This document shows positions 2,622 to 26,383 of a DNA stretch of 64,000 nucleotides, piece by piece; position 1 is the stretch's first letter; each line of letters opens with the position of its first letter. A program made the position numbers and the translations under genes. This stretch comes from Tricharina praecox. Lineage: Eukaryota. Location of the stretch: NCBI RefSeq assembly GCF_024521635.1, contig NW_026250404.1, positions 62,001 through 126,000 of the forward strand, given 5' to 3'. The notes below the pieces were generated by a model, which had not been told where the DNA came from, ran no database searches, and was given only the letters and a program-made list of their open reading frames with translations.

Positions 2622-5600
2622 TTATTCCAATTTCTCAAGAACCAAGCTCTGAACCACATCCTCATCATCCAGGATCCTAAGCCCGCGCCTAGATTTCCAC
2701 AGCTTTTTCGCCTTTGCCTTCTCGGCGGCGCAGACGAGTACGCAGTCCCACTTCGCCCCCAGTTCCTTGAGCAGCTTCTCGCCTGCATCGAGGGTCTTCG
2801 CCTTGACTACCTTCTTGGCCCCAAGGGCGAGGCAAAGGAATGTAAACACTTTCTACTGCTTGTTAGCTAGAGAATAAGAATGGCAAGGGTGGTATCTAAT
2901 ACCCGTTTCTCAACCCCAAGCCCTTTCTCTACAGCGATGACATTCCATCCATCAAATATTCTCTGCCTCCCGTCGATGTCCCCCAATCTTGTGGTGGTGG
3001 CATCCGAAAGAGGCAACATTCTGCTTCTAACCGCGCCGCCAAGATACCGCGACTCACCCGCAGGGAGTAGATAATACTGCCAATCGACGATCTTCCCCTT
3101 CTTAACGCAATCATCGATCCAGCGGCCGGCAAGACACGGCAGGCCTAGGGCGAGCGCCTGCAGGAACTTTGCGCGGCGCGAGTGCGCGTGCGCAATTACC
3201 GCTGTGAAGCCAAGGTTCTGGACTTCGGGCTTCATGACGAGTTGCTGCTCGTTGCCGTTGCCAATGGGGTGGCGAGCGGGATCGTCCATAGCATCGATGT
3301 CGTGGAAGAGCTCGTCGAAGCCAGAGTGTAGGAGTCGCCCGCCGTGCGCGCGGATCTTGGTTTCAATTGAGCGCTTCATGGTGTCTTCCGGGCCGAAGGA
3401 GAGGGCAAAGACCATGCCCTGGAATAAGCCGCCTTTGGGGGTCATGGCGGGAACGCTTGCGGGACTGTTGTGCATGAATGCCGGTGTGGACGTCCTACGG
3501 ATACAAGCACCAGCGAGGCCAGGAAATGGCGAGGGGCTTGCAGTGGCATTCATAGAGTTGGGAATGGAAATGGGCACTGAGAAGTTCATCGATGTGTCCC
3601 GAGGTCCGTACTGCGCCCATAGGGACTTGGTAAGATAAATCTTCGCAAGAGGCACCTCGATTTCGGAAATCGAACTATTCTTGGAGGTAACCGATATGGT
3701 GAGATGACCTCGGATATCGCTATGTCGCGCTACACTATCGTCAGAGTGCTTATCAAGCTCGGCGGCTTCGGGTGCCCTGGGAAAGTTGCTGATGATCCAA
3801 GTGCCCCGCTTCAAATCCGGCAGGTCAACTTTGACCGTGTCCCCAAGTCGAAGATCAAGGCTTCGTACGCACTGCCGCTCCAGCTGACAGGGCGTTCCAT
3901 CGTCAAAGACCACTTGCACTCGTGTTTGGGATTCAGTCGGGCATAATGTCGCTGGGTAATAGTGCAGCTTCTGGTCCTTGAATAGAGCAAATACTCTCCT
4001 GGGTGCGATAACAGGTGGGATCGCCGAAGATGATTCCTGTGGTCTCGGGATGTTGGCGATCGGAACGTCGGATTCGTCCCCGCCATCCGTTGCCATGGTC
4101 GTGGGACTATCCGACTCTAGTGTGGGGAGACTCGGGAGAGCCGGACTGATACGAGTCGACGTTGTTCTCTTCTTAGTGACAGGCTTCGCAGGAGGGTAGA
4201 TGGCTCTTCCGATCTTGCTCGTGAGCTTCGCAGGTGGAGCTGCCCTAGGGATAGTAGGGCAGGACGGCGATGATGGGTGCGAGAACCGAATTTGTGCAAC
4301 CGGCGCAATTAGTTCTTCAGTCTCGCCCGACCCTGATGCGGTCTTTCTCTTCTTTCTCGCCCGGCCCTTCAAAATTGAAGGTGGATGCGCAGGTACCTCC
4401 AAATCGGGCCGGTAGCCAATACCCACATTCTGAACGATACCAATCATATCAACTTCGTCGGGATTCTCCAAATTGCTTAATGGTGGTTGACTGTTGTTCA
4501 ACGCAGCAAAGCTTTTAAGCTGACACTGTGCTCCTGGAGACGATGAGGTGAGATCATCGCCTTCGTCATCCGCTTCTCTGCGTCTCTTGGTAGGTGTTCC
4601 GAGCGTCTGATTTGGCGCAATCTCGCGGGTAGGAGCATTCAGTCCGGCGGAAACCGGTGTGATTGAGTGGACACTGTCGCCCTCTGGGACTGTAGCTAGT
4701 GTTGCCGCCATGCCTTTCCCCGTCTTCCCGTTTTGTTTACCTCTTGAACCACTCGCTACCGGTGGTGGCGTTCCGCGGGTATCGTCGCGAGCAGGACTCG
4801 AGGGGCCGGGTGTCAAGCTGCTCTGGACTTGGCTGGTAAGAGGGATCAGGCCGGAGGACTCTCGCACAAAATCAGGGACGTTCTTCAACATCTCGGAGAT
4901 GGTGTCTGTGGGGTCTGGGTCTGGGGGCGTGGGAGGGAAATCGGGCACGTTGAAAGGGACCATTTGAGTTAAGGACATTGGGTTGGTGCTAGTTCCGCGC
5001 TTCTCAAGCTTTGGAGGGGAAGATATATCAGGCATCGATTTGGTATGATGCAGGGGACTTTCTGACGAGGAAGCTTGGCCCTTTCGGAGGGAAGAGTATG
5101 ATTTTGATCGTCGTTGAAATATGGGTACCTGGTGGAACTGGTCCCAGGTCTCATCCAAGTCAAGTGTAGTTCGAGGTTGAGTTCGTGGCGGTCGCCGTGC
5201 TCTTGGAGGGCTGGCTGGTACTTGAGTTTGCGGTGCTACTGGAGGAGGACGGGCCGCGGCAGGGGTAGAAAAGATTACGGCGTCTTCTCGGCATTGACTC
5301 TCTGGCCCTGTGTCACTGGCTGTCTCATCATCATCCAGCAATTCAATAACCGGACGTTGAACACTGGTCCCCCTTTCAACAAGCTTTTCGGAAATCCTAA
5401 CAGGCTTTTTGGATTTTTTTGTTTGTTTCGTGGACAGAGTTTTGGATTCAGACGGACGGTAAGCTTTAATGGCAGCTGCTGCTTTCCTTTTTCTCGCATC
5501 AACTTTCATCTTTTTAAGTTCATCCTTCGAGAACAGGATATCTTCATCGTCCGAATCATCCCGCAGAACCGGTCCCGCACGCGCCAGAGGCGCTGGTGAC

Positions 5601-6731
5601 GAAAATGGAACCGGCGACAATGTTCGTGGACGCACAGGTGTTTTCGATGCCTCTTTAGCTAACTCTCTACCCATGCCGGTTTGGGGCGGCCTGGTAAACT
5701 CCGGAGGCTCTGTGGTTCCCCGTCGCCAGGCAGGACTCGCTGCTCGAACAGGCGAACTGCAATTATCCCAAAACGTTGGAGCCAAAGGCATGGACTGCGC
5801 CATCAGTCTAGCAGCAGCATAAGACGGAGTCGGAGGAGGTAACGAGCCCACCGCTCTCATCCTGTCGATAGGAGATGATGGAGTATTGAACACATCTGCC
5901 AGGCTCATGCCAGTTCCTTTACTCATTCCAATTAGGTGGCCAAGGGGATTGATGTCAACTTTTGCTGGACTAGACTGCTGATGACGTCCAGGAGAGTCGA
6001 ACCGATTGGCTTCGAGAAAGTGGGTCGATTTTTCCACACGTTCGTCTTCGTCCGGGAGGCCATCATCTATTATTGGCTCCAGGTCCAACTCTGGCCCGCC
6101 GGGCTCCTCCGGAGCCGTTGCCATGAGCTCGTGATCGGATCGGGGAACATCCTCTTCGGTAGCCTTCGGCTCCTGTTCATGTTCCTGCGTATCAGGCATA
6201 GGGGCATCCTCTTTAGTAGCCGTCGGCTCCCGTTCCTGTTCCTGCGTATCGAGTCTAGGGGTATCTTCTTCAGTGGCCGTCGGTTCGTGATCTTCTTCCT
6301 GCTCCCGTTCTTGTGTATCTCTCGCTAACGGTTGATACCGTGCCGAATTGATCGCCTTCATACTGGCCGAATCCACCTGGGTCTCCCCAAGGTCAATTTG
6401 AGAGTAGGGAATTGAATACGAAAGGTGCAGATTCCCGGAAAAGTCTCGACTTTGGCTTTGCGGCTGCGCATTTGCTGTATAATATGGGATCGAAGATGGA
6501 ACGGACGCTTGAACCAATGGGATGTCATTGGAAGGTGCCTCGGCGGGTGGCGGGGATTGCGGTACTAATGTTTTTCCGGGAGCTTCTGGTGGCGGCTTGG
6601 GGATTTCCTGTGGGACTACAGTGAGTAGAGCTCTGAGTCGGGAAACGAGGACGGGTGTATTGGAGATAGCGTACTGAGAATGCCTCTCGCAGATGTCGAA
6701 CATCGATGGAGGCCTCAGTAGTTCCGGACAT
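2622..6731 (-). CDS. rad9: DNA-damage checkpoint mediator of the Rad9/Crb2/53BP1 type (disordered SQ/TQ-rich N-terminus, tandem Tudor-like domain, C-terminal tandem BRCT)
   Basis: Exons 6731-6675 (MSGTTEASIDVRHLREAFS), 6607-2903 and 2852-2622, with GT-AG introns 6674-6608 and 2902-2853 that keep frame. Motifs: RVFALFKDQKLHYYPAT...VVFDDG (Tudor-like), GLFQGMVFALS, HSRRAKFLQALALGLPCLAGRWIDDC and YYLLPAGES (BRCT). The start exon is inferred. Confidence 0.85.
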
Positions 6732-7412
6732 CGGCTTTGCCTGCTTCCCCACAACTGACCGCGGGGTATAGCTTCAAAGGGTATGTTCTATAGTAGATGG
6801 AACAAATAGCCGCAGTGAAAGCACCAATCGGAAGAGAAGATCAAAGGAAACCGCGAAGGAGCTCGATAACGCTTCGATGGCGGTTGGTGAGGATGATTAT
6901 CGATTGGCCGTGTCCTGGTGGTCGGAGAGTCGAGTCGCGTTGAGCAGATGAGGGAGGCGACGCGACTTGGGAACTGGAGGAATGAACCCTGGCAGAGCAA
7001 AGCCGGGAAGCGTGAAATGGCATCCCAGTGCACGTGACACTGGGTCAAAGCGCTCAATGCTCAACCCCGTGGACACTCTTCAGCAATGGGACAAAGATTA
7101 TACACCTAAAGAGATTCTGAGGACAGGCCAGAAGTACCAAATTTTCCAGTTTGAACAGATTCTTGAGTCTGAAAGTATTGTCACATGATATATCTACACA
7201 GCTTAGATAGACAGAGTAGATGCTCTATTCCCGATTCGCTCAAACTACCTTGCACGTGTAGCTCATCACGCGAGGCCGCATCATCCATCCCCTAAGTTCG
7301 AACCCTTCCAACTGTCGCTCCTCCAGCCTATTTGCGGATCATCCTCTCATCGCCGACCGGCCGTGATCAACTCGACGAACACTAGCTGGGCTACATACTA
7401 CCAAATCACATC

Positions 7413-10190
7413 ATGGACGATCTTTCAAGACTCAACTGGTCGACCACAAACAAACCTCCCAACACATTCGCGAATGTGTCCCTGAAATCATCCCCGCTCT
7501 CCTCCGCTGGGCATCAGAACGGCTCAACGCCATCCAAGAAAACCGCCGGCGATAGCTTCTCCAATCTTGTATCTTTCAGCCGTGACAAGCAGGCCTCCAA
7601 TCTGTCGCTACTGGAGCAGCAAAAGAAGCTCGAGGAGCAGCGCCAGAAAGATGAGGAAGGTCGTCGGAAACAGATGGACTCGCTGTTCGGGGGTGCCGGC
7701 TGGGATTCTCTTGCTGGACGAGGCAGCGGAACACCTGCGTCAACCGCTTACAGCGCGCCTCCAGCGACCGATGATGACGATCTCCTAGCAGCGTTTAACT
7801 CCTCAGCTCCTGTAGATTCTACCTCCCACTATCCGGCTCCAGCCACCAGCGTCACTCCGCAGCCACAGAATGGCTTTGATCTGCTCGGCGAGCCCTCTTT
7901 CGCAGCGATCACCACACCGTCACTCTCCAACTCCCACTCCCTCGATCTATTCGGTACACCCACGAACCTCCCCTCGCGCGGCACCTCGCCCATCCCGCCG
8001 CCGCAATCGCAAACCGATGACGATGATTTCGATATTCTGGGGGATCTCGCGAAACCTGTATCGGAGCTTCCACGGCCGCAGCCCACTCCGTCGCCGAAAC
8101 CGGTGTCCCGTCCGGCTTCCGTACCGCCGACTTCGGATCCAAGAGACCCCGCAATCGCAGAGATAATGGATATGGGGTTTACAGCAGACCAGGCGAAACG
8201 AGCATTGGCCGAGACGGATACGGGATTGGATGTGGAGGCTGCGGTAGGTTGGTTACTGGAGGATGCTCATCAAAAGAATCGGCCCGCTGGTTTGACACCC
8301 CCGCAGCAGGAACGTGGGAGGGAGCCACGCGGTGAGAGTAGCCGGCAGCCCCGAACTCCATCGAACGAGCAGAGGAGGGAGCGGGAAAGGGGGGATGCCA
8401 ATACTCCTGCGTGGGCGAGAGGTGGGCCGCGTCCCGGGGAGAAGGATATTGGGGCTTATGCGGCGGAGGTGGGCGGGACGCTGTTCAAGTCAGCGAATAG
8501 TCTCTGGAGTACGGGCCGCAAGAAGATGGAGAGGGCGGTCGCGGAGCTGAAGGCGGATTTGGTGGATGGTGGAGGTGATCCGACTCAGCCTAAGTGGATG
8601 AGGGAGCGGCAGATCAGAGAGGAGCTGGAAAAGCGTGGCGCAAAGGGAATCTCTCGAAACGACAGACCGCCGTCAGCTGATGAGGAAGATACGCGCTCAA
8701 GAGGCAGGCCGGAGGCAGCAATCACAGATGAAGCGTTGATGCTGGAAATGGGAGGAGGCCCACCACCTCCGCGACGGAAGCTTAGGGAAGAACGGCTTTC
8801 ACCGGCACCTTCCCGGAACTCTGGCATGTCTGAAAACGAAAGGATACAACAGCAGCGCATGCTCGAGATGGAGACTGCCATACGGGAGAAGGAGAGAGAG
8901 ATGCACGAAAGGGCACTGCGGGAACGGGAAAGGTCACGTGCCGGAGCTGCTATTCCCGACAGTGCAAGCAGGAAAGCTAAACTGGCCTCCGAGAGCGAAC
9001 CGGTATACGTCTCGCGCAACCGCCGACGACCACCTCCGTCCTCCGCTTCCGCCTCGAAACCATCTACTCCCGAGCCAGACCTCCTCGGGGGTGGTAGCGG
9101 TAGTGGCCTAGGCGACAGCAGAGGCAGCAGCTCACTAAACCCCTTTGCCCGCGATATGGCAGCAGAAAGCCAGCGGTCTCCCCAACCCTCGACAATATCA
9201 AGGACACCAACTCCCCGCCGCCCAGCTCCCAAGCCACGACAGTCAGTTCCAATCTCACCATCTGCACTGGCTCAATCCAACGCGGCGCGACAGAAAGGAA
9301 CCGATGCCTTCAAGCGTGGAGACTATACCGCCGCAGACACCTTCTACACATCTGCACTAGCCCCAGTTCCAGAAACCCACCCGCTGTGCATAATCCTCCT
9401 AGCCAACCGTTCCCTGTGCAAAGTCAAACTTGGCGGTCCCAAAGACGCCATCGTCGATGCCGATGCCATTCTCCATCTCATAGGCGAATCTCGTGGAGAA
9501 TCCGAAACCATCACGCTTGACGGCACGGAAAAGGACATGAAGGATTATTGGCTTAAGGCCATCATGCGAAAAGCAGAATGTCTCGAACAACTGGAGAAAT
9601 GGGGCGATGCTAAGGATACCTGGGAACTTGCCCTCACTGCGGGCGGAAACGCGGCTGCTATCAATGGTAAGCGCCGCTGTGAGGCGGCCCTCAAGCCTAA
9701 GGCTCCACCGAAGCCGAAGGCCCCCGTCAAGCCTAAGGTTCCATCGCCATCTGCTAAGCCGAACGTCGCTGTGGCGGCGCTACGGAAGGCAAACGCCGAC
9801 CAGGAGCGACAGGATAATGAACGCCTGGAGTTGCATGATATCGTGCACGACAGAATTGGAAACTGGAAGAACGGCAAGGAGGGGAATCTCCGAGCACTTC
9901 TTGCGGGACTTGACACAGTACTATGGGAGGGGAGTGGGTGGAAGAAGGTTGGAATGGGGGAGTTGCTTATTCCCCAGAAATGTAAGATCGCTTATATGAA
10001 GGGCATTGCGAAGGTTCATCCTGATAAGGTATGATTTCTGTTCTAATGGTGGATGAAGTGGATGGATGAGATGCTGACCTGAATACAGATCAGTCAGGAT
10101 GCTACCACGGAGCAGAAGATGGTCAGTGCCGCCGTTTTCAGTCTTCTCAATGATTCATGGGAGATATTCAAGACTGAGAATGGGTTGTAA
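7413..10190 (+). CDS. swa2: Swa2/auxilin-like clathrin-uncoating co-chaperone (UBA + TPR + C-terminal J domain)
   Basis: UBA: AIAEIMDMGFTADQAKRAL...AAVGWLL. DLL/DLF clathrin-binding-type motifs. TPR: RQKGTDAFKRGDYTAA. J domain: WKNGKEGNLRALL...AYMKGIAKVHPDK. Intron 10029-10088; the last exon ISQDATTEQKM...FKTENGL ends at TAA 10188-10190. Confidence 0.88.
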
Positions 10191-10411
10191 TTAGAATGGC
10201 GACTATAATTTCTCTCCTAGGGATATCTTTGGTAGCTTGACTTGACGCGTTTAGAACTGCGAGTTTTTGGATGTTTATTGCGTTTTTTGTTTTTATTTTT
10301 TCGATTTTCGAGCTTTAAAGCATTTCTCTCTCCATCTACACCATTGGCATGGCAATGACCCGCCGGGATCCTTGCCATCTTAGCGCAAACGGGTTTCAAA
10401 TTCGTATCTAT

Positions 10412-10457
10412 AGCTTGCTGATCACGAGCGTACTGATCACGAGCTTGCTGATCACGA
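10412..10457. repeat. Three ~15-bp tandem units each containing CTGATCACGA, directly upstream of the peptidase gene
   Basis: gcttgctgatcacga gcgtactgatcacga gcttgctgatcacga. A regulatory role is not established. Confidence 0.8.
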
Positions 10458-10499
10458 TAATACCATAGAAGTTACATAGCGGATAGAAACGGCTTGACT

Positions 10500-12145
10500 A
10501 TGGCGGCTAGATCATCGTTGAGACATCTGTTGCAGCCGTGCATCCGAGCATACGGCCAACCCCGCAGCCGTCATCACCTCCCCAGTTCACCCCGCTATCT
10601 TCCCGTAGCATACACCCCTCGAACACGACACTTCACCATTACTGCCACCATTATGCCATCTGTCGACGAAATTCTCGCCCGCCGCTACCCCGCAAAAGCA
10701 CATGCGAAGGCCGTCGCCGACTACCTTCACTCCCGCCATCCTGCACTGACCGACGGCACGATCTACCTGGAATCCGCAAAATCCGGGCACCACGAAGACT
10801 GCGACCAAGAGCTCTCCCCGCGGCAACGCCGTCCCTTCTTCTACCTCACCGGCTGCAGCCTTCTCGACTCTTATGCGGTTTACACCATCGCCTCTCAGAA
10901 GCTCACACTCTACATCCCGCCTATCAACCCTGCCGATGTCCTCTGGTCCGGGCTGCCGCTCTCTCCACAGGAGGCGCAGAAGCGATACGATGTCGACGAT
11001 GTCCGCACCACCGACCAGCTAGACACCGATCTCCGCGCGCTCGAGGCGGCAGCAACCCCAGCCCAACCGCTCTTCGTCATCCCAACCCAAGTCTGCCGCT
11101 CTTTCAACCAGCAAGTCTCAGGCTCTTTCATCACATCCACGCTCAAGTCTGCCGTCGACGAATGCCGCGCCTTGAAGGACGCCTACGAAGTAGCCCTCAT
11201 CAAAAAAGCCAACACCATCACCACCGCCGCGCACCAGGCCGTCATGGCTGCCGTCAAATCCGCCAAAAATGAGCGCGAGCTGCTCGCCGTGTTTACTGAA
11301 CGGTGTATCTCCCTCGGCGCGCCAACCCAGGCGTACACGGGGATTTTTGCAGCCGGCAGGGCCGCCGCGACGCTACACTACGTACATAACAACCAGCCTC
11401 TAGAGGGGAAACTTAATCTACTACTAGATGCGGGGGCCGAATTGGATAATTACGCGAGTGATGTGACGAGGACATTTCCCATATCGGGAAAATTCTCGAA
11501 AGAAAGCAAACAGGTCTACGACATTGTCCTGCGTATGCAAAAGGAATGCCTTGACCTCTGCAAGCCGGAGCAGAATTGGGATGGTGTCCATGTTCATGCG
11601 CACCGAGTGGCGATTGAGGGGCTACTGGAACTGGGAATCCTCAAAGGGGGGAATGTGGACGAGATTTTGGAGAGTAGGACTAGCTGTGCGTTCCTCCCGC
11701 ATGGGCTGGGTCATTACCTCGGCATGGACACCCATGACACGGGTGGAAATCCGAACTATGAGGATAGCGATAAGATGTTCTGTTATCTCAGGAAACGGGG
11801 GCCACTGCCTGTGGGTGCGGTTATCACCGTTGAGCCGGGTGTAAGTCCTCTTGGTGACATACCGGAATGGGGCGCTGACCAGGGAAGATCTATTTCTGCG
11901 AATTCATCATCCACCCGTACCTGAAGGACCCAAAGCATGCAAAGTTTATTGACGAGAAGGTGCTGGATAAGTACTGGGATGTTGGTGGTGTTAGAATTGA
12001 GGGTGAGTTTCCTATTCCCTGAAACGACTCTGGCTGACGATAGACAGACAATATCCTCATTACGAAGGATGGCTATGAGAACCTCACCACGACGGTCAAG
12101 GAGGTCGAAGAGATGGAGAGTATTGTGAATGGCGGGTCGAAGTAG
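10500..12145 (+). CDS. pepP: Xaa-Pro aminopeptidase / prolidase (peptidase M24B), with a possible N-terminal mitochondrial presequence
   Basis: Motifs [26 protein letters not shown]...[35 protein letters not shown] and GGVRIEDNIL. Introns 11841-11887 and 12003-12047; stop TAG 12143-12145. A second in-frame ATG lies at 10653 (MPSVDEIL). Confidence 0.92.
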
Positions 12146-13972: not shown

Positions 13973-15291
13973 TACTGTAGTCATATAGAATACCGAAATT
14001 GATTCTATGTCCATATCCATTAACCTCGCATAGCACGCAATATTGTCTTTTGACGAATCTAACATTCAGATGCAGATAGGAACACTGCTGCAGCGCTATT
14101 ATATTGGATGTAGTGCGCCTCTCGAAGAAAACAGCTTTCTGGTTATATTGATACTATCGCGAGAGGGCTTTCGTATGCGTGAGACGTTCATAACATGCCA
14201 TTTCGTTACTATATCGATCTAGTAAGGTTATGAGAGTTGAGCAAAGACGCATTCATTTGAATGCCGACTCGCTGCGGTAGTGTCACCAATATCAAATAAC
14301 GTGACGAATCACAAGATTACGCACCGAAATGTCATTGGGCATTGCTTTGAATATTCTACTCCTTTTCCTGCTGTAAAGATTTCGCCGTTGTTTGATTACC
14401 AGTATTTAATCCAATGCCCGTCTTGTACCGGTACTGCTACCATACGGGTAAACCCCCATCTTTTGCCACAGTATCAACTTCAAAATGCTGAACGACACAC
14501 AACGACTCATCAACTTCAGAAGTCCTTTCCCAGTCTTGGGTTCTACGCACCAGGACGATTCGGATCTGATAACTGTTGAAGACTGGGATTTTGAGATTTT
14601 GGTAGGCTGTCTGTCCGTCTTGAAGCGCTGGTGATGGTGGCATTGCCGCATCCCACAGTCGCACATGGTGACATGATGAATGATGAGATACGGCTCGACC
14701 GAGTGTCTAATGCGTAATGATGTATGTACATAGGGATCTGCTTGGATACATTCAGGCCAGACCTTGTTGTTTTCAGTATTGAGAGTGTTTGTCGAAGGGA
14801 AATGAACTTGTGTGCAGTGGGGAAACATATGATGTCACCCGTTGAAACATCTTTATAAACGATATGCAGCTGCCGACTGACGCTTCCAACAATTGACCAG
14901 CTCCTCATGTGATTTACTCCAGGCCGCGGAAATGTCGCTTGGTGATCTCCTTGGGAGTTCTGACCAACTCCCTGTATGGTAACTGTCTGCCACTGGTTCT
15001 TGGGTCTTCCGCAGGTTTTGTTATCAACATGGATCCAGTCGGTCTACAGCCGGATGCCTCTGTCGCTGCAGTTATCGAGCTCCAACGGACCAGTCGTTGA
15101 ACTCGAATCCTCGTATATATCTCCGCCAACCACAGGCGTCCATTCGACCGGCGATAGAAGCGGCAAGTGTGTAGAGTACTCTGCGCTTCACCTCATGTCG
15201 TACAGAGTCCGTCCACATCACATCCGCAACGTCACGTCCCCGCAGTCCCACAACCACCACCACCACAACCACCACAACCACCGCAACCACC

Positions 15292-17641
15292 ATGGAACAG
15301 GACCCGTACGAAGTTCTCAACCTTCCACCCAACGCAACAGCCGACCAGATCAATGAGCATTTCAGAGTAGCTGTGCTGGGCTGCCATTCCGATGAATTTA
15401 TCAGGATCCGTGCCGCGTATGCTCAGCTGATGGATGAGGAAAGGAGACGGGAGTGGGAGCGAGAGGGACTGATAGAGGAGGAGATACCGCGGAGAGAGAA
15501 CAGACTGCGGGAGGAGAGTAGGCTGTGGGAGGAGGAGCGAGCGCGGGAAGAGGAGAGACTTGCTGAACACAGGGCTGAGTGCGAACGGGAACGTATACGA
15601 CGAGAAAGGCGACGGAGGACTTCGGCGCCGCCTCCGTATGAGAGTTTTGGGTACGGTACTTGTAATACCGATCCTCCTCCGTACTCACTGCCGCCGGCAT
15701 CAATAGCACCACAGGACGAGGTCGAGACAGCACCACTATTCGCGCATCGATCGAAAGGGATCCTGCGGGGATTTAGACGCAGTTGCGGTCGTGCTGCCGC
15801 CGATTGCGGTTCCACGTTAATACTTGTAACCCAGGATGTCTTCGAATCTCTTGCCACTCTCGTTGTTTTCATTGCTCCATTCGTCATTCCCCTTGCCATC
15901 ATTATCAGCGGGCTCATGATGATTATATTGGCCGTCATGGGGATAGTCGACCTGCTAGGCAATATACATGTGCCAAGTGTCCACTGGCCCCAGCGCCCCC
16001 CACGGTATCAGCGGAACATCGCAATCATAGGCGCTGGCCCGGCTGGTGTGACGACCGCATACCAGCTCTTCCGGATGTGCTCACAGCAAGGCATTCCAGT
16101 GCACATCACGATATACGAGCAGTCCTCGCATATTGGTGGGAGGGCTGTCCACACTATCGGACTCTCCACAGGCGAAATCCTCGAGCTTGGTGTCAATACT
16201 TTTCCGAAGACTGCAAGGCTCTTGATCTCGGCGGCCAATAATCTGGGTTTGGAAACCCAACAGTTTTCCAACGGTGCCGTTGACCTCATCGGCCCCTCTG
16301 GAACTGGCTCATTCGGCGTGTTTGTCTCCTTGAATCCATGACCTCATAGAACAGTTAACCGACACCTCCCAGCTATGACGGCCGCTCATGGGCTCTCACC
16401 GAGCAAAAGCCCCATAACTTCTTCGATGATTACAACTGGTGGCCTTGCGGACGCTGGGGCTCATCCCCCAGACTAGTCAGCCGCCTCGTCAAGGACGTCC
16501 GTAATCTTCTTCCCTACCTGCACAACCCTTTCACCACTCTCGAGACTCTCGTTGCGTCCGCCGGCCTGCAGCAGCTCACGCAAAGAAGCGCAGAAGAAAT
16601 CCTCAAGCGTGCCGGGGTCTCCACCGGTTTCCAGAGAGAACAGCTCAATCCTTGGGTCCGCGGAAGGTACGCGCAGAACCTCGGCACAATCAGCGCTCTG
16701 GCGGCATTCATAGCCGCCGATAACATCGCACCCCTCATGACCATCCACGAGGATGGGGACGGAAGGGTGTCCGCACTCTGGGAACAAATGGTCAGCTACA
16801 CTGGCGCCACATTGAACCTCCTCACTCGGGTGGAGCATCTTACCAAAGCCTCATGGGGCGGCTGGGAGCTCACCGCCACTGCGTCGTTCAACACCACCAC
16901 TGCGCCGTTCAACACCACCACCATCCCCTACGACGCCGTAGTATTGGCCACTCCCTGGGCCTTAACCCAGTCTCACCTCTCCACCACCCCGCCGCTCTCC
17001 ACAGCCCCAATTTCAGTCGCCTACACGCCCCTACACATCACAATCTTCACCTCCCCCTTCCGCCTCTCCCCACACCCTTTCCACGGCAACAAACACATTC
17101 CGGACCTAATCCTAACCACGCCGTGTTCATGGGAGTACACGTCCATCTCCGGCCGCAGCGGTGCCCACGGGCTAGGCCAGGCGCCGTTCTGGAGTCTGGC
17201 GGTATTGAAGCCCCTCGTGGAGGAAGGAGAGAAGAGGTGGTTGTACAAGCTCGTCTCTGCGCGGGAAACGACTGATGCGGATATCCAGCGCTTGGTTGGC
17301 GTAGGCCATCGTTTCTATATTATTCATCGTCATCATGTATGTTCCCCCACCTCCCCTTCCCTCTTGCTATTCCCCGATTAACATGAAAGGCTCCCGCGGC
17401 ATACCCCCTCTTACCGCCTCGATCGCAGTTCAGTAAGATCCGCCTCGAGGAAAACCTTTGGTACACCGGAGCGATGGATGAACTCGCCACGGGTGTCGAG
17501 TGGGCGAGTATTAGTGGCGCGAATGTTGCCACGTTGGTTGCGGGACAGTGGAGGAGGGAGGGGGTCAGGCTGGGTGTGGGGCGCAGGATTCCGGTCCCGC
17601 CTGTCGAGAATGGGACTGAGGAGGTAATCGAAGGGAGGTAG
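15292..17641 (+). CDS. Membrane-anchored prenylcysteine oxidase/lyase-like flavoprotein with an N-terminal degenerate J domain, E/R-rich helix and PPxY motifs
   Basis: Exons 15292-16319, 16373-17336 and 17390-17641 (introns 16320-16372, 17337-17389) join in frame. J-like: DPYEVLNL..AT..QI...F....CHSDEF.RIRAAYAQL. TM: LATLVVFIAPFVIPLAIIISGLMMIILAVMGIV. FAD Rossmann: NIAIIGAGPAG...TIYEQSSHIGGR. PCYOX-like motifs: ELG, GVYDG, RGRYAQNL, YDAVVLATPW, YTPLHITIFTS, AYPLLPPR, LWYTG, SGANVATLV. Confidence 0.78.
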
Positions 17642-17725
17642 AGAACTGATGGTGACTTTGTGTTGAAGGTTATTTAGTTGCATTTTCTTTGGTTGTATTT
17701 GCTTTGGTTGCATTTGCGTTGGTTG

Positions 17726-17783
17726 CAGTTACACTTTTGTTTACAGTTACACTTTTGTTTACAGTTACACTTTTGTTTACAGT
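17726..17783. repeat. 18-bp tandem repeat x3
   Basis: (CAGTTACACTTTTGTTTA)3 in the spacer between two convergent 3' ends. Confidence 0.95.
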
Positions 17784-18245
17784 CATGGATCATCACACGC
17801 TCCGTCGAAATAAATTGATGTTCTCTCTTTCTGTCACAATTGGAAAACATTTGTACGTCCATAGTGACTATGGATACGGGCCTTACATACATCACCCGAA
17901 GGTACGTACTTTGTAGCTACCAGTATATACAGACATGCAGAACCAACAAGCCCATGTGAACAAACAGTACACCTCGATTGTTGAACGGTTGCTATGACGC
18001 CGAAAAGACAATGCGTGCTTCCTATGACGGCTATAGCCCTCAACATCTCGAGCCCAACCGAAACCGGTCCCTCTGGAACCAACTCAATTAACTAAAACAA
18101 ACCCGCCGACATCACTTGTAGTGTTCAGGGAAGCCAGTCGGGTATATCGGGAAACTAAAATCATAAACACAAGCCATGCGTGCCGTACATATCTCGATCG
18201 TCATTGCGCACTTCCTTCATCCTTCCCTTCCGAATCACGGCATTT

Positions 18246-19359
18246 CTAATGGCCGTTCTCGCCGTTCCATCTCGCTCCCTGAGCCGAAGCCCCCGATTCC
18301 TTCTCGAGCTTTTCGAAATGCCTCCTCGCAACCGCGATATTCCCGAGCGTCGTAGCGCTCTCTGCGGCATTGGCGGGCATGACGACCAGAATGTAAGTGT
18401 TCGGCGTGAGCACGTCGATGAACGCCGAGAACGTATGGGCGCGCAGCTCGAACGCGATAAAGTTGCTCGCCATCTTCGTGCACGACTGCTTGAACTGCTT
18501 TACGATATTCGAGATCTTCTCGAAGCGATCTGGGTAGGGATTCGGTTCCTGGGCGCGCGTGACGTGCGAGATGACCAGGAACGTGGTGCGCTCGAACAGA
18601 ATCACTTCCTCGGCTTCCGCGAGCTCGGCGAACCGCGTCAGGTGGTGCTCCAGTTGCGGGAGGTTCGGGATCAAAGTGTACACGATCTTGGCCCACGCTT
18701 TGTACAGCGTCTCGTCCCAGATGCTGGTCGCAAACGTCGTAATGTCCATGCCCAGAGATTTGTCGCGCAGTACGGCGGACCGCTCTTGGTATAATCGCTC
18801 GCGCAGCTCCGCCTGCACTAGGTCCATCTTGTGGATCAGACAGAAGACGGAGGCATCCGGGGAGTTCTGGGAGAGCGCTTCGATTATCGAACAGTACGTT
18901 ATCAGATCGCGGTTGAACTCGCGCGACTCCACGTCGAATACGTAGATCAGGACCTCGACATTCTTAAATATGTGGTCGCGCTGCGTGGCAAGGTAGTTTT
19001 CCATGAATGCATCTTGTCTGGTTACGTCAGTCGTCAGTCGTGCGCAGTGTGTTGGAGGTAGAAGGTAAAAGCAACCGTACCCTCCACAATCCCACAGGTT
19101 CAGCGTCAGGTTCCCCAGGAATCGAACGTGCGAGTGCTCCACGTCAATTGTCGCGCCTAATCGTCGAGTGTCTTTTGCCACATAGTTGCTAAATACGATG
19201 GATCGCATCGACGATTTGCCACTGCCTGATTTTCCCTGCCGTCGCCGCTTAATCGTTGGCCTCTCCCTCGCTCTCAATCAAGCTCCGAGCCCCACACCGA
19301 CGTACCATCAGCAACACTTTCTTCTTGTTGCGATTTCCTTTCCGCTCCTCGAGACTCAT
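18246..19359 (-). CDS. gtr1: Rag GTPase Gtr1/RagA (TORC1 amino-acid signalling)
   Basis: Exons 19359-19306 ([18 protein letters not shown]), 19235-19081 and 19017-18246. Motifs [66 protein letters not shown]. Confidence 0.96.
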
Positions 19360-19619
19360 GATGGGCTAGAAGTAGTGGCGGGGGTAGTTGCGGTGATGTG
19401 GAGGGAGTTCGTTATGGTGACGAGGGCTGGTGGGAAGAGTCGTTCGTGGAGTGCTGGGGGAGGTGTAGTGATGTGAAGGTCGGATGCTCGTAGCCATTCG
19501 CAGGTGGGTAGTTAGGGTGCATGGGGTCGCTTGAGCTAACCTGCAACTCCGCTGCGTCGGGTCCGGAGCCGCAGAACGCGCAGTGTCCGTGTTCAGCTAG
19601 TCATTGTGAGTACACATGG

Positions 19620-21743: not shown

Positions 21744-23651
21744 TGCCCTGGCCTGACTCGACTCCGCTTTTCTATTTGGGCTGGGCTGGGGTTTTTTGTT
21801 GCCTTCTTGGGGAAACGAATTGGGTGGTTGGTTGGTTCCTTGGATGGAGTTTGTTGACTGGGGGGTATTTTTTCTGTTGCTGTTGCTGTTCTCCTCTCTG
21901 TTTCCTTTACTTTACTTTACGCGGACACGCTTTTTATTCGGGGGTGAATTGGATTCTTTTGCGGATTGGATTGGATTGGATGCGCTTTCTCCTGTCGTTG
22001 CTTTTGGTTTTTGTCTGTACCTGTCGTACTACTTTTTTTCCGTTTTTGAATGCTGGCCTAGGTTTGGTTTGGTCTGGTCTGGTCGAAGAAAAGCTCAGAG
22101 AAGTATAGCACTTACGGTTGAATTAGAAAGATCAGAAGTGAAGTCGAGGACATACGTGTGGTCGGTGTGATGTGATGTGATATTGGAAACGTCATGTAAA
22201 AGTGTGGAGTGGAGTGATCATAAACTATCACTTACCCGAGTACAGACGGATCATGGGTTGTCACGCAGGCTGGGTTCTTCGGAGCTGGCGATATGCGTGC
22301 GAACTGGCTGCGCAGACGACGTTTTACGGCGGCAAAAGTGAAGTCCATCCCCACCGTCTCGAATCCGAATCATGAGGCTGTATTCTGCCTACACCAGCCG
22401 ACACGAAAAAAATGGGTTATGGCACCATCACTATCAAGCCATTTCCCTTTCTCATCCAATCATCTCACGGTCCGGTGATCACCCCGAGGCCCGAGAATGC
22501 GTTTTGATTGATGCCGGGTAATGATCCTAAATGGCAGCATGCTTGGTGTTTGGCCTTGAGTAGGTTTCTGACCGAGGCTCTTCGGTCGTAGACAGTTGTG
22601 ATCGAGTACCTAAAGGCCTTGGATTGGAATTTGCGGTCGACGGAGAGAAGTCACGAGCTTGCAGCCGCGTACAAGGCCTCTGTGATGGCACATGAGGCGA
22701 ATCTCGATGTCAACCCGACACCTCGCACGTCCACGCTTATGTAGCGGTGCCACGGCCCACATCTACACCTCGCACCGGCAACTCCCAGCACCACCCTTCA
22801 CTTTCGAGTCAAGCTTTCTTTCGCGTTAGCAAAGATCGCGCACCACGACGACGGCCGGCGGGAAATGATCTATCCGATGCGGGAATTCGAAGCTAGCGAG
22901 TAACCCCTCACCCATGATCCCCCCGCACATGTCGGTACCGGGTTTCTGGGGGGGAGGTGTTCTGGAAGTCCTTGGGGAAGTTCTCCTTTGTAGGCTTCGT
23001 TGGTTTGGGGGGAACGGGGGGGAGGGGGGAGTGGGTTGTTGGGTCTGGATGCAGGCAGAGCTGGCCCGCTGGCTGCTGGGTGCTGGCTCGCTCGCTGGCC
23101 TAGATAGTGCCAATAAAGTGGAGAAATCCGAGTGTCACAAAGAAGTATGCGAGCTCGATTCGATGGTGGATACATGTCAGAGGACCACGAGAGATCCGTC
23201 GAGATAGTCTGACCCGGATCTGTGCTCGCTCGTCTAGCGAAGATAACAATTCCTATTTTCGAGCCGATCGCCCCGAGCCTCCTCCCCGCTGCCGTCGTGT
23301 CTGTGTCTGTTGTCGGCCCAAGCCACTTTTTCGGAGCCATTGCGAACTGCGCGTGTTGAATCAACATCCTCCCCAGTGCCCCGTCGTGCTGGCTGGCCTG
23401 TATCCAATCCTCACTGCTGGCCTGCTGGTATCATAGTAACTCCCTTCCTCCTCCCCCCCTCCCAGCAACCCAAACGACCCCCATCAACCCACCCTCCACC
23501 CACCCCCCCACCACCTTCCTCCGCCGCCTCCCAAAAGTCTCCACACTCTCCTGCGTCATCTGTGCCCGTTCCGAAACTGTCTTTCCTCGCGCGCGCGCGC
23601 CCCACAGCAATCATAAAGACGCAGGCACACACACACGCTCCCACACACACG

Positions 23652-26383
23652 ATGCCCGATACGTCGATGGCTCATCAATCTTCGCCCGCACCCGATCACA
23701 TTCCCTCAAAACACTTATCGTCCAACTCCTCGTCCGCGTCGAACAATACTCCTATCACCGCGACGACGACGACGACGACATCGACGACGAAGCCGTCGTC
23801 CCCCTCGTCGGGATTTAGCCTCAATAATAGACACAATGGAATCGGCAACGGCAACGCCAGCGGCAACGGAGGCAACCACAGCAACTCCTCGTCGCGGGAC
23901 TCGTCGCCACACAGCAAATCCGACGCCGCCGACGCGCCCGACCTCATGTCCTCGTCCTCGTCGCTAAGGTCGAGAGCTAAAGGTAAAGAGCCCGCCGACG
24001 CGAAGCGGCCGTCGACGCCGGTCGCGCGCCCCGTCACCGCCGAGTTGCACCTGATGCAGTACCAGCAGCGCGACCAGGAGCACGCCAGCGCGCTGCTCAA
24101 ACAGATCGATGTCGGCCACGACCTCATCCGCGACAAACGCCGCGAGATAGAATACTACCAGCAGCTGAAGAGAGATAGGAATCGCCACCCGTGGACGGTG
24201 TTCGGCCAGGGCTACGCGGGCTTCGGGAATGGAACCACTGATGGCAACGCACGCGTGCTGTATCCGTGTCAGCGCAAGAGACCCGGGGGAAGAAAGGCGC
24301 GTGAGCTGCGATTGACGAGGACCCAGCTGCAGGAACAGGCGGATCGCGTCGAGATGTTGGTCCCCATACGCCTAGATATCAACCATAACCAGATCCAATT
24401 GCGCGACACGTTTACTTGGAACATGCACGAGCAGACGGTGCCGCTGGATCTGTTCGTGGAGCAGCTGGTCGAGGACTTTCACCTGCCACTGAATCCGTCG
24501 CTGTTGCAGACCGTCACGAACAGTATACGAGACCAGGTCACCGACTACCATCCACATGTGTTCCTCGTCGATGAGCCACTAGATCCCGTCTTGCCGTACA
24601 CTGCTTACAAGAACGACGATATGCGGATCCTGATCAAGCTCAACATCACGATCGGGCAGCATACATTGGTGGACCAGTTCGAGTGGGATATCAACAACCC
24701 CATGAACTCGCCCGAAGAGTTCGCGCAGCTCCTGACGCGGGAGATGTCGCTCTCGGGAGAGTTCACAACTTCCGTCGCGCACTGTATTAGGGAACAGTGT
24801 CAGTTGTTCACGAAGGCGCTGTACGTCACCAACCACCCATTCGACGGTCGACCCATCGAGGACGAGGACGTGCGCACGGCGTTGCTGTCGTCGCCCATCG
24901 CCTCCGTGTTCCGGCCCTACATTCTCGCCAAGGATTTCCAGCCCGTGCTCTACGAGATGTCGGAGAACGAGCTGGACCGTGCCGAGAGGAGTCAGTCTCG
25001 CGAACGACGACGGCTGCGTCGCGTACGAACCGTCAACCGCAGAGGCGGTCCGACTATTCCCGATCTCAAGGATATGCCTAAGACGCACCGGACGCAGATC
25101 GTGTCGTCGATACTACCAGGTGCCGTGCAAAAGGTTACGGATCTCGAGAAGGCGATGGCGGTTAAGCAGGTTAAGGACGGCGAATCGGATGACGACGACA
25201 GTGATTCGGACGTCGAGGATCTGCCGCCGGAGAAGACCATCCCTGGCTACAGCCGGATGACTGGTCGCCAGCGGCAGGCTGCCATCAATGCGCAGAAGGC
25301 GAATGCTCAGGCACGCTCGCAAACGCCGGAGGTCCACAGCGTTCGGTCGGATCGCACCGAGCGTTACGCCGAACGGTTACGACACGAGACGCCACTATCG
25401 ACGCCATTACAGCAGACCCAGACCATCACACCCAGCATAGTCCAGCGTCTACCACGTCGGCAAGGTGTGCCGCTGCATCAGGACTCGGCTGTGTTCAAAG
25501 TCAAGCTCAACCTGGCCAAGTTCAGGAAAACTATGGAGGACCTCAAGGCACGCGATGCGCAGAAAGCAGCGCAACAACTAGAGGACGAGAAGGCGCGGGA
25601 GTTGCTACGCCAACAGGCCGCCGCCATGCCGCCACCGTCTCAGCAGCCATCCACCTCACAGAAGACGCCACTACCGTCTGCTTCTACGCCTGCTGCGGCC
25701 TCTTCACCTCCTACTCCAGCACATTCTGCCGTGCCCGCACCGCCTCTTACCCCACCAACTCCCACTCCCTCTGCTCCGGCTGCAGCTTCAGCTCCGGCCC
25801 CAGCTGCAGCTCAGTCCCCAACTCCGGCTGCGGCTCCAGCTCCAGCTCCATCACCAGCTTCGGCACCGACTCCGACTCCGGCTCCCAGCACAAACCCGCC
25901 AGGCTCAGCCGAAGAAGCACCAGTAAGTCACCTCCCGATCCCCCCATCCTGCCCACGCATAACATAAATCTCTAACCACCCACAGCCACCTCCGGACTGG
26001 CTCATCACGGCGCTTTCGCGACTGCGCGAGACGTACACAAACGACAACTTCGAAGCGACGATGCGGCGGATCGCGTTCGACGCCGAGACGGGCCAGAGCA
26101 TGTCGGCAGCGCAGATCCAGGCCACCAGCAAGGAGATAAAGTGGAAGTGGATCCCGCGCATCCGCTGTCATGATTGTCCCGGAAAGCTCTACACTCCGGG
26201 TCCGGAACAGACCGTAGAGAGCTTTTTGGTACATGTCAAGAATAGAGGGCATAGGTACGGTTTCACCCCTAATAGATGAGGCCAGACCGGATGAAGCTAA
26301 TGGGGTGTGCACACAGAGTACGTGTCGACCAGAGAACGAAGACTGGTGGTGGCGGCGCGATGGCGGGCGCGGGGAGTTCGTGA
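23652..26383 (+). CDS. snf5: SWI/SNF chromatin-remodelling subunit Snf5
   Basis: SNF5 repeats LVPIRLDI...LRDTFTWN and DDMRILIKLNITIG..TLVDQFEWDINN..NSPEEFA...LSGEFTT.VAH.IREQ. Fungal C-terminal region RIRCHDCPGKLYTPGP...HVKNR.H. Introns 25923-25985 and 26255-26316; stop TGA 26381-26383. Confidence 0.92.

Follow-up and report, generated by a model that had tools for sequence, protein, structure and literature searches.

A predicted membrane-anchored, prenylcysteine-oxidase-like protein with a degenerate J domain in Tricharina praecox

Gene structure and transcript

The stretch analysed here, called the window, comprises 64,000 nucleotides of Tricharina praecox (NCBI RefSeq assembly GCF_024521635.1, contig NW_026250404.1, positions 62,001 to 126,000). 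On its forward strand lies a gene for a protein related to prenylcysteine oxidases (PCYOX), whose first exon carries a J-like segment, a helix rich in glutamate and arginine (E/R-rich), a pair of PPxY motifs, the acidic dileucine-like motif ETAPLF, a hydrophobic segment and the first half of the flavin adenine dinucleotide (FAD) domain. Each of these parts was found at the position given in the original prediction, which had been made from the letters of the window. Enumeration of GT..AG pairs yielded a frame of 747 amino acids in three exons separated by two introns of 53 nt. Its ATG, in the context ACCATGG, is the first in frame downstream of the stop that precedes 15175. The gene is organized as follows.

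15292..16319, + strand: exon 1, with the start codon, J-like segment, charged helix, sorting motifs, membrane segment and first half of the FAD domain
16320..16372, + strand: intron 1, 53 nt, GT..AG; predicted, and absent from the transcript contig in both runs
16373..17336, + strand: exon 2, prenylcysteine-lyase domain (Pfam PF07156)
17337..17389, + strand: intron 2, 53 nt, GT..AG; predicted, and absent from the transcript contig in both runs
17390..17641, + strand: exon 3, with the Tyr433 equivalent, C-terminal FAD helix and stop codon (Pfam PF07156, 41.4 bits)
17642..17755, + strand: 3' untranslated region, inside the transcript contig

In each of two sequencing runs, X1 and X2, from two studies, we found one contig of 2397 nt that spans 15293-17755, extends 40 letters further 5', and omits exactly 16320-16372 and 17337-17389. 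The RNA nature of both runs is our guess; the two introns of the neighbouring Gtr1 gene are likewise removed in them. The contigs carry no information on start site or expression level. The gene is real and expressed. Since the whole 747-residue frame lies on spliced contigs free of introns, all the listed parts are on one mRNA, including those encoded within 15292-16100, the region in which the original prediction was to be checked against transcripts. The metatranscriptome runs X3 and X4 contain next to nothing.

An ACC/AAC microsatellite (15247-15291) immediately precedes the start codon and is also found 5' of both copies of the related metagenome locus L006 described below. Further upstream, at 14300-15240, RNA contigs of low depth (3-10) may represent an extended 5' leader or a separate, weak transcript. 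Imperfect tandem repeats with a unit of about 20 nt occupy 17700-17790, in and past the 3' untranslated region.

The enzyme part and its relatives

Pfam recognizes NAD_binding_8 at residues 245-306 (33.3 bits, cut-off 21.9) and, against a cut-off of 27, Prenylcys_lyase with 60.6 bits in exon 2 and 41.4 bits in exon 3, and a profile search matched PCYOX1 at E 4.4e-18. The fold was compared on the model of the Sphaerosporella brunnea orthologue, used as a stand-in for the spliced T. praecox protein. Its enzyme part is mostly modelled at pLDDT >90, and its best solved match is PCYOX1 (PDB 9FXQ; E 5.9e-26, TM 0.77 by target), in agreement with a search of the ESM Atlas. Exon 2 by itself matched no solved structure by sequence, and exon 1 gave no usable match in the ESM Atlas. 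Word-index searches returned nothing for exon 1 among proteins of 600-2000 aa, and for the Sphaerosporella protein (P0004) nothing beyond that protein. Domain, fold and tree thus assign the gene to the PCYOX superfamily, with two canonical features missing: the signal peptide and the GGN/ME motifs.

The following positions of the enzyme part were mapped, those in exons 2 and 3 by alignment, which for the Tyr221 and GGN positions passed through 9FXQ.

16030..16047, + strand: GxGxxG FAD motif, GAGPAG, residues 247-252, intact
16668-16670, + strand: Tyr221 equivalent, exon 2
16749-16772, + strand: replaced GGN region, exon 2
17474-17500, + strand: MDELATGVE, C-terminal FAD helix, exon 3

In this mapping the numbering of the PCYOX1 paper equals the 9FXQ chain plus 20, as three matching residues suggest. 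Tyrosine stands at the positions of both Tyr221 and Tyr433, isoleucine at that of Val234, and the acidic end of strand 2 and the GGR motif are also kept. In the PCYOX1 study, activity was abolished by Y221A and blocked by V234W, whereas it survived Y433A (PMC11530802).

The T. praecox assembly (38.4 Mb, 104 contigs) holds a canonical PCYOX paralogue, for which the original prediction had suggested a search. It was found on contig C61 (E 9e-80), the present gene being on C17. Its N-terminus resembles a signal peptide, and it carries GGNW and STME. A genome search found only these two PCYOX-like loci, which are about 27-31% identical. A search of 1.84 billion representatives with exon 2 returned 220 matches, 14 of them with E <1e-30. 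The named relatives are proteins of S. brunnea (P0004; 830 aa, A0A5J5ENQ2 / KAA8896381.1), Pyronema omphalodes (P0012 and P0152; 792 aa and an 815-aa cluster member, KAI5814431.1 and KAI5814429.1) and Geopyxis carbonaria (P0013; 647 aa), with an exon 2 identity of 47% to the S. brunnea protein and 36% to KAI5814431.1. Pfam finds DnaJ, FAD and Prenylcys_lyase domains in the Sphaerosporella protein and both Pyronema proteins, so that orthologues of the same architecture do exist; no family scored in the Geopyxis protein. The original prediction did not know this combination as described. Our literature searches (subscription journals outside coverage) likewise found no description of the protein, clade or domain combination, nor any paper on prenylcysteine and J domain together with fungi or on prenylcysteine with Sphaerosporella. 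Automatic annotation does contain it: the database record of the Sphaerosporella protein already carries precomputed DnaJ, Amino_oxidase and Prenylcys_lyase domains, although the combination is rare.

A metagenome scan, which is no census, returned at least 599 stretches and at least 16 loci. Among those listed, L006 (70% identity) contains two tandem copies (3937-6252 and 9580-10942), and L007 and L008 (42%) contain one copy each, without a J domain; the best E with a J profile was 0.32. Copy b of L006 is 90% identical to copy a. In the metagenome assembly it has lost its start codon and has a frameshift in the J region, while PPxY, dileucine-like motif, membrane segment and enzyme are kept.

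We computed a tree of 101 enzyme domains (443 columns, FastTree LG), with the N-terminal tail outside the alignment; 52/136 weaker matches (outside 430-760 aa), copy b of L006 and P0002/P0005, which resemble L006/L007, were left out. The gene falls inside a 15-member clade (support 0.975) within a 22-member clade (0.94-1.0), and the canonical copy lies elsewhere in the tree. The wider clade includes Kalaharituber and Peziza of the Pezizales (an order checked for Kalaharituber) and, outside this order, Cirrosporium and Sarcosagium; both canonical and clade-type copies occur in Cirrosporium and P. omphalodes. On this evidence the gene belongs to an uncharacterised clade of PCYOX paralogues that derives from an old duplication. 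A large further group of divergent fungal PCYOX paralogues (P0021, P0045, P0058 and others) adjoins the clade; its inspected member, P0021, retains GGN but carries Phe in place of Tyr221.

The changes that the original prediction noted in the GGN and STME regions are confirmed, and proved to be common to the clade rather than peculiar to this gene. Counted by eye, GGN is present in 0/22 clade members, against 11/11 alignment rows outside the clade and 9FXQ. The methionine of (S/T)ME is gone in all 13 clade members having the region (ME in 9/10 non-clade rows), and the acidic residue of the same C-terminal helix is kept in 13/13. The Tyr221 equivalent is kept in 13 and replaced in 9 of the 22 members, and GxGxxG has changed in two members, Sphaerosporella and P0015, and is lacking from the possibly faulty Geopyxis gene model (3/13 together); with these two sites changed, some relatives may be inactive. 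Two cysteines, in MCSQ of exon 1 and TTPCSWEY of exon 2, are retained as a pair in this gene and in those of L006, L007, Sphaerosporella and Geopyxis; Pyronema has lost both.

Selection was estimated by the Nei-Gojobori method against copy a of L006; with synonymous distances of about 1, the values are rough. The enzyme has a dN/dS of 0.14 over 486 codons (pN/pS 0.24, 95% range 0.20-0.29), with 0.13 in the N-terminal FAD region and 0.07 in the exon-3 core; its fold is maintained by strong purifying selection. The original prediction had left the choice between a new substrate and a pseudo-enzyme. A changed substrate is the simplest reading for this gene, and the hint of a pseudo-enzyme is weakened by the retention of GxGxxG, Tyr221 and Tyr433 and by the low dN/dS.

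We consider it rather unlikely that the protein is a pseudo-enzyme adaptor, in which the lumenal PCYOX fold would do no more than bind a ligand, prenyl or lipid, while the cytosolic tail brings Rsp5 to membrane cargo nearby, together with Hsp70 in proteins with an intact HPD, in the manner of adaptors of the Bsd2/Tul1 type. The clade-wide loss of GGN and (S/T)ME, the changes of GxGxxG and Tyr221 in the relatives and the frequency of PPxY given below all suit such a role, and PPxY adaptors are known (PMC4022603). Against it stand, in this protein, the intact GxGxxG, acidic strand 2 end, GGR and both tyrosines, the constraint on the FAD region and exon-3 core and, in 13/13 clade members, the retained acidic residue in the C-terminal helix.

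Sorting motifs, membrane segment and J domain

The N-terminal part is composed of the following features.

15301..15456, + strand: degenerate J domain, residues 4-55 (Pfam DnaJ 30.2 bits, cut-off 27.8; J-fold model; alignment)
15436..15621, + strand: long E/R-rich helix, residues 49-110 (unbroken helix 49-109 in the model, pLDDT 85-98)
15628..15639, + strand: PPxY motif 1, PPPY, residues 113-116, kept in both L006 copies
15673..15684, + strand: PPxY motif 2, PPPY, residues 128-131, aligned with PPxY of P0004, P0012 and P0150
15724..15741, + strand: acidic dileucine-like ETAPLF, residues 145-150 (D/E-x-x-x-L-[LFY] in 11/12 clade members with N-terminus)
15754..15756, + strand: Lys155, the sole lysine before the membrane segment
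15847..15948, + strand: uncharged hydrophobic stretch, residues 186-219 (34 residues; hydropathy peak 2.87)

Motifs were counted by eye from printed alignments and sequences in the 12 clade members with an N-terminus; P0015, which begins at its membrane segment, is outside this count. A tail followed by a membrane segment is found in 12/12. In Kalaharituber, Peziza, Cirrosporium and Sarcosagium the N-terminus consists of a short tail, a dileucine-like motif and one membrane span before the enzyme; that of Sarcosagium reads PPPY, EESPLL, four arginines and one span. The recurrence of this layout in clade members, whose tails did not enter the tree, indicates that the tail-anchor-enzyme module is old and the J domain younger. 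PPxY is present in 9/12 members; both PPxY and the dileucine-like motif are conserved in the clade. ETAPLF departs from the strict consensus [DE]xxxL[LI] in its last residue, F. The proposed cytosolic tail offers Lys155 as a candidate ubiquitin acceptor.

With a type II layout and PPxY, the protein would also suit an endocytic cargo, that is, a plasma-membrane scavenger that binds or oxidises prenylated peptides from outside the cell, such as a farnesylated a-type pheromone, or environmental terpenoid thioethers, and is removed by Rsp5-driven endocytosis. Farnesylated fungal pheromones exist. Farnesyl groups are bound in the tunnel of PCYOX, which also takes the cysteine methyl ester (PMC11530802). 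However, the conserved acidic dileucine-like motif suggests Golgi-to-vacuole sorting (PMC4649669), PCYOX1 requires a free alpha-amino group (acetylation causes a 10-fold loss), and nothing in this analysis ties the gene to mating. We regard this role as very unlikely.

The protein does not begin with a cleavable signal peptide: its first hydrophobic segment begins past residue 175, whereas the canonical copy has a signal-peptide-like hydrophobic segment at 7-34. The wider hydrophobic block (175-230) is preceded by six K/R in 25 residues and followed by three. In the AlphaFold model of exon 1 the motif region is disordered and is followed by one unbroken helix (169-223) and then by the start of the Rossmann fold. 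One short span of about 20-25 residues by eye is seen in 7 of the 13 clade members with a visible membrane segment, members outside the Pezizales included, and an extended hydrophobic block in the other 6, among them this gene. The type II topology of the original prediction is thus upheld as the probable ancestral state.

The uncharged stretch of this gene is long for a single span and contains Pro196 and Pro200, and the blocks of L006, L007 and Sphaerosporella are longer still. These features would fit a hairpin that enters and exits the same leaflet, leaving the enzyme facing the cytosol on the endoplasmic reticulum (ER), lipid droplets or the vacuole surface, as would the second, C-terminal hydrophobic segment of Pyronema, which follows a basic run in the manner of a tail anchor. 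We nevertheless consider a hairpin unlikely, given the short span in 7/13 members, the secretory-pathway ancestry of the enzyme and the single unbroken helix of the model, the last being weak evidence. An N-x-[ST] sequon moreover occurs at one position in 5/9 clade rows and 0/6 canonical rows of the same alignment, a site that this protein lacks.

A second hydrophobic segment at the C-terminus is seen in Pyronema (P0012, P0152), after another E/R-rich helix, and in Geopyxis. In exon 2 of the present gene an internal duplication (16890-16935; FNTTT twice) creates two sequons that L006 does not have.

The J-like segment scores above the Pfam cut-off and has the fold of J-domain co-chaperones (model residues 1-50, pLDDT 90-97, the last helix extending to residue 109). 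Its top Foldseek matches are J domains, at a weak E = 2e-3 or worse. It lacks the HPD of class C co-chaperones: HSD stands at 15385-15393 where intact J domains have HPD, both L006 copies read HPS, and the loop between helices II and III is reduced to two residues in the model and in the alignment with intact J domains. Even conservative changes of HPD abolish Hsp70 stimulation, as stated in PMC13254874. Its dN/dS of 0.49 (pN/pS 0.59, range 0.37-1.04) is indistinguishable from neutral, compared with 0.24 for the motif linker, 0.34 for the charged helix and 0.52 for the membrane segment. Between copies b and a of L006 the N-terminal dN/dS is 0.91 and that of the enzyme 0.35. With HPD lost, the loop deleted and constraint weak, the chaperone-like module that had been proposed is not supported as a working one in T. 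praecox, and the J domain is best read as a decaying type IV remnant. In Sphaerosporella and Pyronema (P0004, P0012 and P0152) HPD is intact, and the J domain is probably able to recruit Hsp70. The E/R-rich helix, which reaches about 100 residues in the Sphaerosporella orthologue, is probably a spacer.

Among the 12 members the J domain is intact in three, without HPD in two (this gene and copy a of L006), broken in one (copy b) and absent in six. It is seen, with the charged helix, only in Pyronemataceae and close relatives of the T. praecox gene, and both were presumably added later in the Pyronemataceae lineage. Two other J domains of the T. praecox genome, both candidate donors, resemble that of Sphaerosporella about equally (43% and 41%).

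The members that lack a J domain (L007, Geopyxis) and copy b of L006, with its broken J region and intact frame downstream, would also be expected if a small J-like gene and a PCYOX gene shared one frame by chance or misassembly, or if translation began near the membrane segment. Such an artefact is largely refuted at the RNA level by one spliced contig running from just 5' of the ATG to beyond the stop in two studies. Given also the start context and the identical order of parts in Sphaerosporella, Pyronema and copy a of L006, it is scarcely credible.

A more speculative and quite doubtful proposal, based on the same anatomy, is that, in Pyronemataceae, the protein would act at the membrane as a self-contained unit of quality control or sensing. 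The lumenal PCYOX fold would bind prenyl-lipid ligands without or beyond catalysis, and the tail would recruit Hsp70, through the J domain on its helical arm of 60-100 residues, and Rsp5 to cargo of the endosome or vacuole; the HPD-less J domain of the T. praecox lineage would then be a recruiter or competitor and not a remnant.

Beyond the stop codon, and convergent with the PCYOX-like gene, lies a gene at 18246-19440 (-) that we take from its motifs to encode a Gtr1/RagA-like GTPase; its two introns are confirmed by RNA contigs, and run X2 shows one G>A difference at 18465. The gene 5 kb upstream, at 7386-10034 (+), is presumably auxilin/Swa2-like, with UBA, TPR and an HPD-type J motif at its C-terminal end; this second J-type membrane-traffic protein nearby is probably a coincidence. 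The frames at 2867-6787 (-), 10461-11924 (+) and 23247-25967 (+) appear to us to resemble Rad9/Crb2, Xaa-Pro dipeptidase and Snf5. There was no sign of a functional cluster around the gene, and its neighbours in the window did not turn up beside the related genes of L006 or L007.

Proposed function and comparison with known systems

The reading that we favour, with a probability of roughly 0.55, is that of a type II vacuolar or endosomal flavoenzyme with a changed lipid substrate, sorted by Rsp5 and AP-3 and bearing a vestigial J domain. Its mechanism is drawn from anatomy and yeast precedent. The N-terminal tail would remain in the cytosol and the enzyme face the lumen. PPxY would bind the WW domains of Rsp5, for which the genome contains a fitting frame bearing three such domains, and AP-3 would be bound by the acidic dileucine-like motif. 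Delivery would be to the endosome or vacuole, either to the limiting membrane or, after ubiquitylation at Lys155 as the sole candidate, to the interior of multivesicular bodies. Prenylcysteines are released during vacuolar proteolysis. The enzyme would bind FAD and oxidise a hydrophobic thioether or amine freed in this way, such as a prenylcysteine or a relative, probably without the canonical specificity.

Several observations weigh against this reading. The losses of GGN and of the (S/T)ME methionine, the replacement of Tyr221 and the altered or missing GxGxxG, all counted above, affect the enzyme. As for sorting, the two signals imply different destinations (AP-3 and multivesicular body), strict [DE]xxxL[LI] is found in only 3/12 members, and L007 has no lysine before its membrane segment. 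The hydrophobic blocks of L006, L007 and Sphaerosporella measure about 55-90 residues, with an uncertain number of spans. Each protein has 1-4 N-glycosylation sequons in its enzyme part, about chance by a rough estimate, and these were not taken as evidence on lumenal location. Tree supports were taken after rerooting and may be off by one node, and long branches may attract. Topology is the weakest step, because of the 34 uncharged residues with two prolines and the uninformative sequon counts.

If the type II reading is right, some ascomycetes hold two PCYOX-like proteins in different compartments, one a signal-peptide form and the other membrane-anchored and directed to the vacuole, the site at which prenylated proteins are broken down, and the remodelled flavin-side pocket of the anchored form may act on an unfamiliar lipid. 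The clade also offers a graded natural series of J states (absent, intact, HPD-less, broken), which is relevant to the question, open according to PMC13254874, of whether J domains without HPD are accidental or selected. The reach of the finding is limited, as few fungi carry the gene and there is no hint of new chemistry or of a new kind of system.

The closest known systems are PCYOX1 (9FXQ) and canonical fungal PCYOX (PF07156), which have the FAD and prenylcysteine-lyase domains in common with this protein and give the best profile and fold match. GxGxxG and the equivalents of Tyr221 and Tyr433 are kept, and L007 shares an intron inside GxGxxG with the canonical gene L001. In contrast to canonical PCYOX, the present protein has no cleavable signal peptide and no KTEL/xxEL-type end, has lost GGN and (S/T)ME, and is predicted to have a membrane anchor and, in the cytosol, a tail that bears sorting motifs. 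The original prediction had placed PCYOX in the lysosome or vacuole; Barone 2024 locates PCYOX1 in the ER instead, where it is retained (PMC11530802). Many canonical fungal copies end in xxEL/xxDL, which agrees with such retention, so the two copies may divide their work by compartment.

Yeast Cps1 is the type II precursor of a vacuolar hydrolase that Rsp5 sorts into multivesicular bodies (PMC4022603). A cytosolic N-tail, membrane anchor, lumenal enzyme and Rsp5 dependence are thus common to both, as predictions here; however, Cps1 relies on the adaptors Bsd2/Tul1 for Rsp5, whereas this protein carries its own PPxY, and the enzymes are unrelated. Direct Rsp5 binding through PPxY, again predicted here, is shared with Sna3 (PMC2171029), and an acidic dileucine-like motif with proline before leucine with the AP-3 cargoes Pho8, Vam3 and Ypq1 (PMC4649669). 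Unlike these, this protein has both signals in one tail on an enzyme, and its motif ends in F instead of L/I.

The J domain resembles those of the type IV (pseudo) J proteins Pam16 and DNAJB13 in having a recognisable fold without HPD (PMC13254874), but orthologues keep HPD, the loss being confined to the sub-lineage of T. praecox and accompanied by weak constraint. Among the Sphaerosporella and Pyronema orthologues, whose records are named only hypothetical or 'J domain-containing', the order of parts is the same, with HPD intact and a helix and membrane block of other lengths; GVDPAG replaces GAGPAG in Sphaerosporella, and Pyronema has an extra C-terminal membrane segment. DNAJB12 and DNAJC18 are membrane class C J proteins. 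Proteins of their type likewise span a membrane, with the J domain in the cytosol and another domain in the lumen; the lumenal partner is here, by prediction, a flavoenzyme fold.

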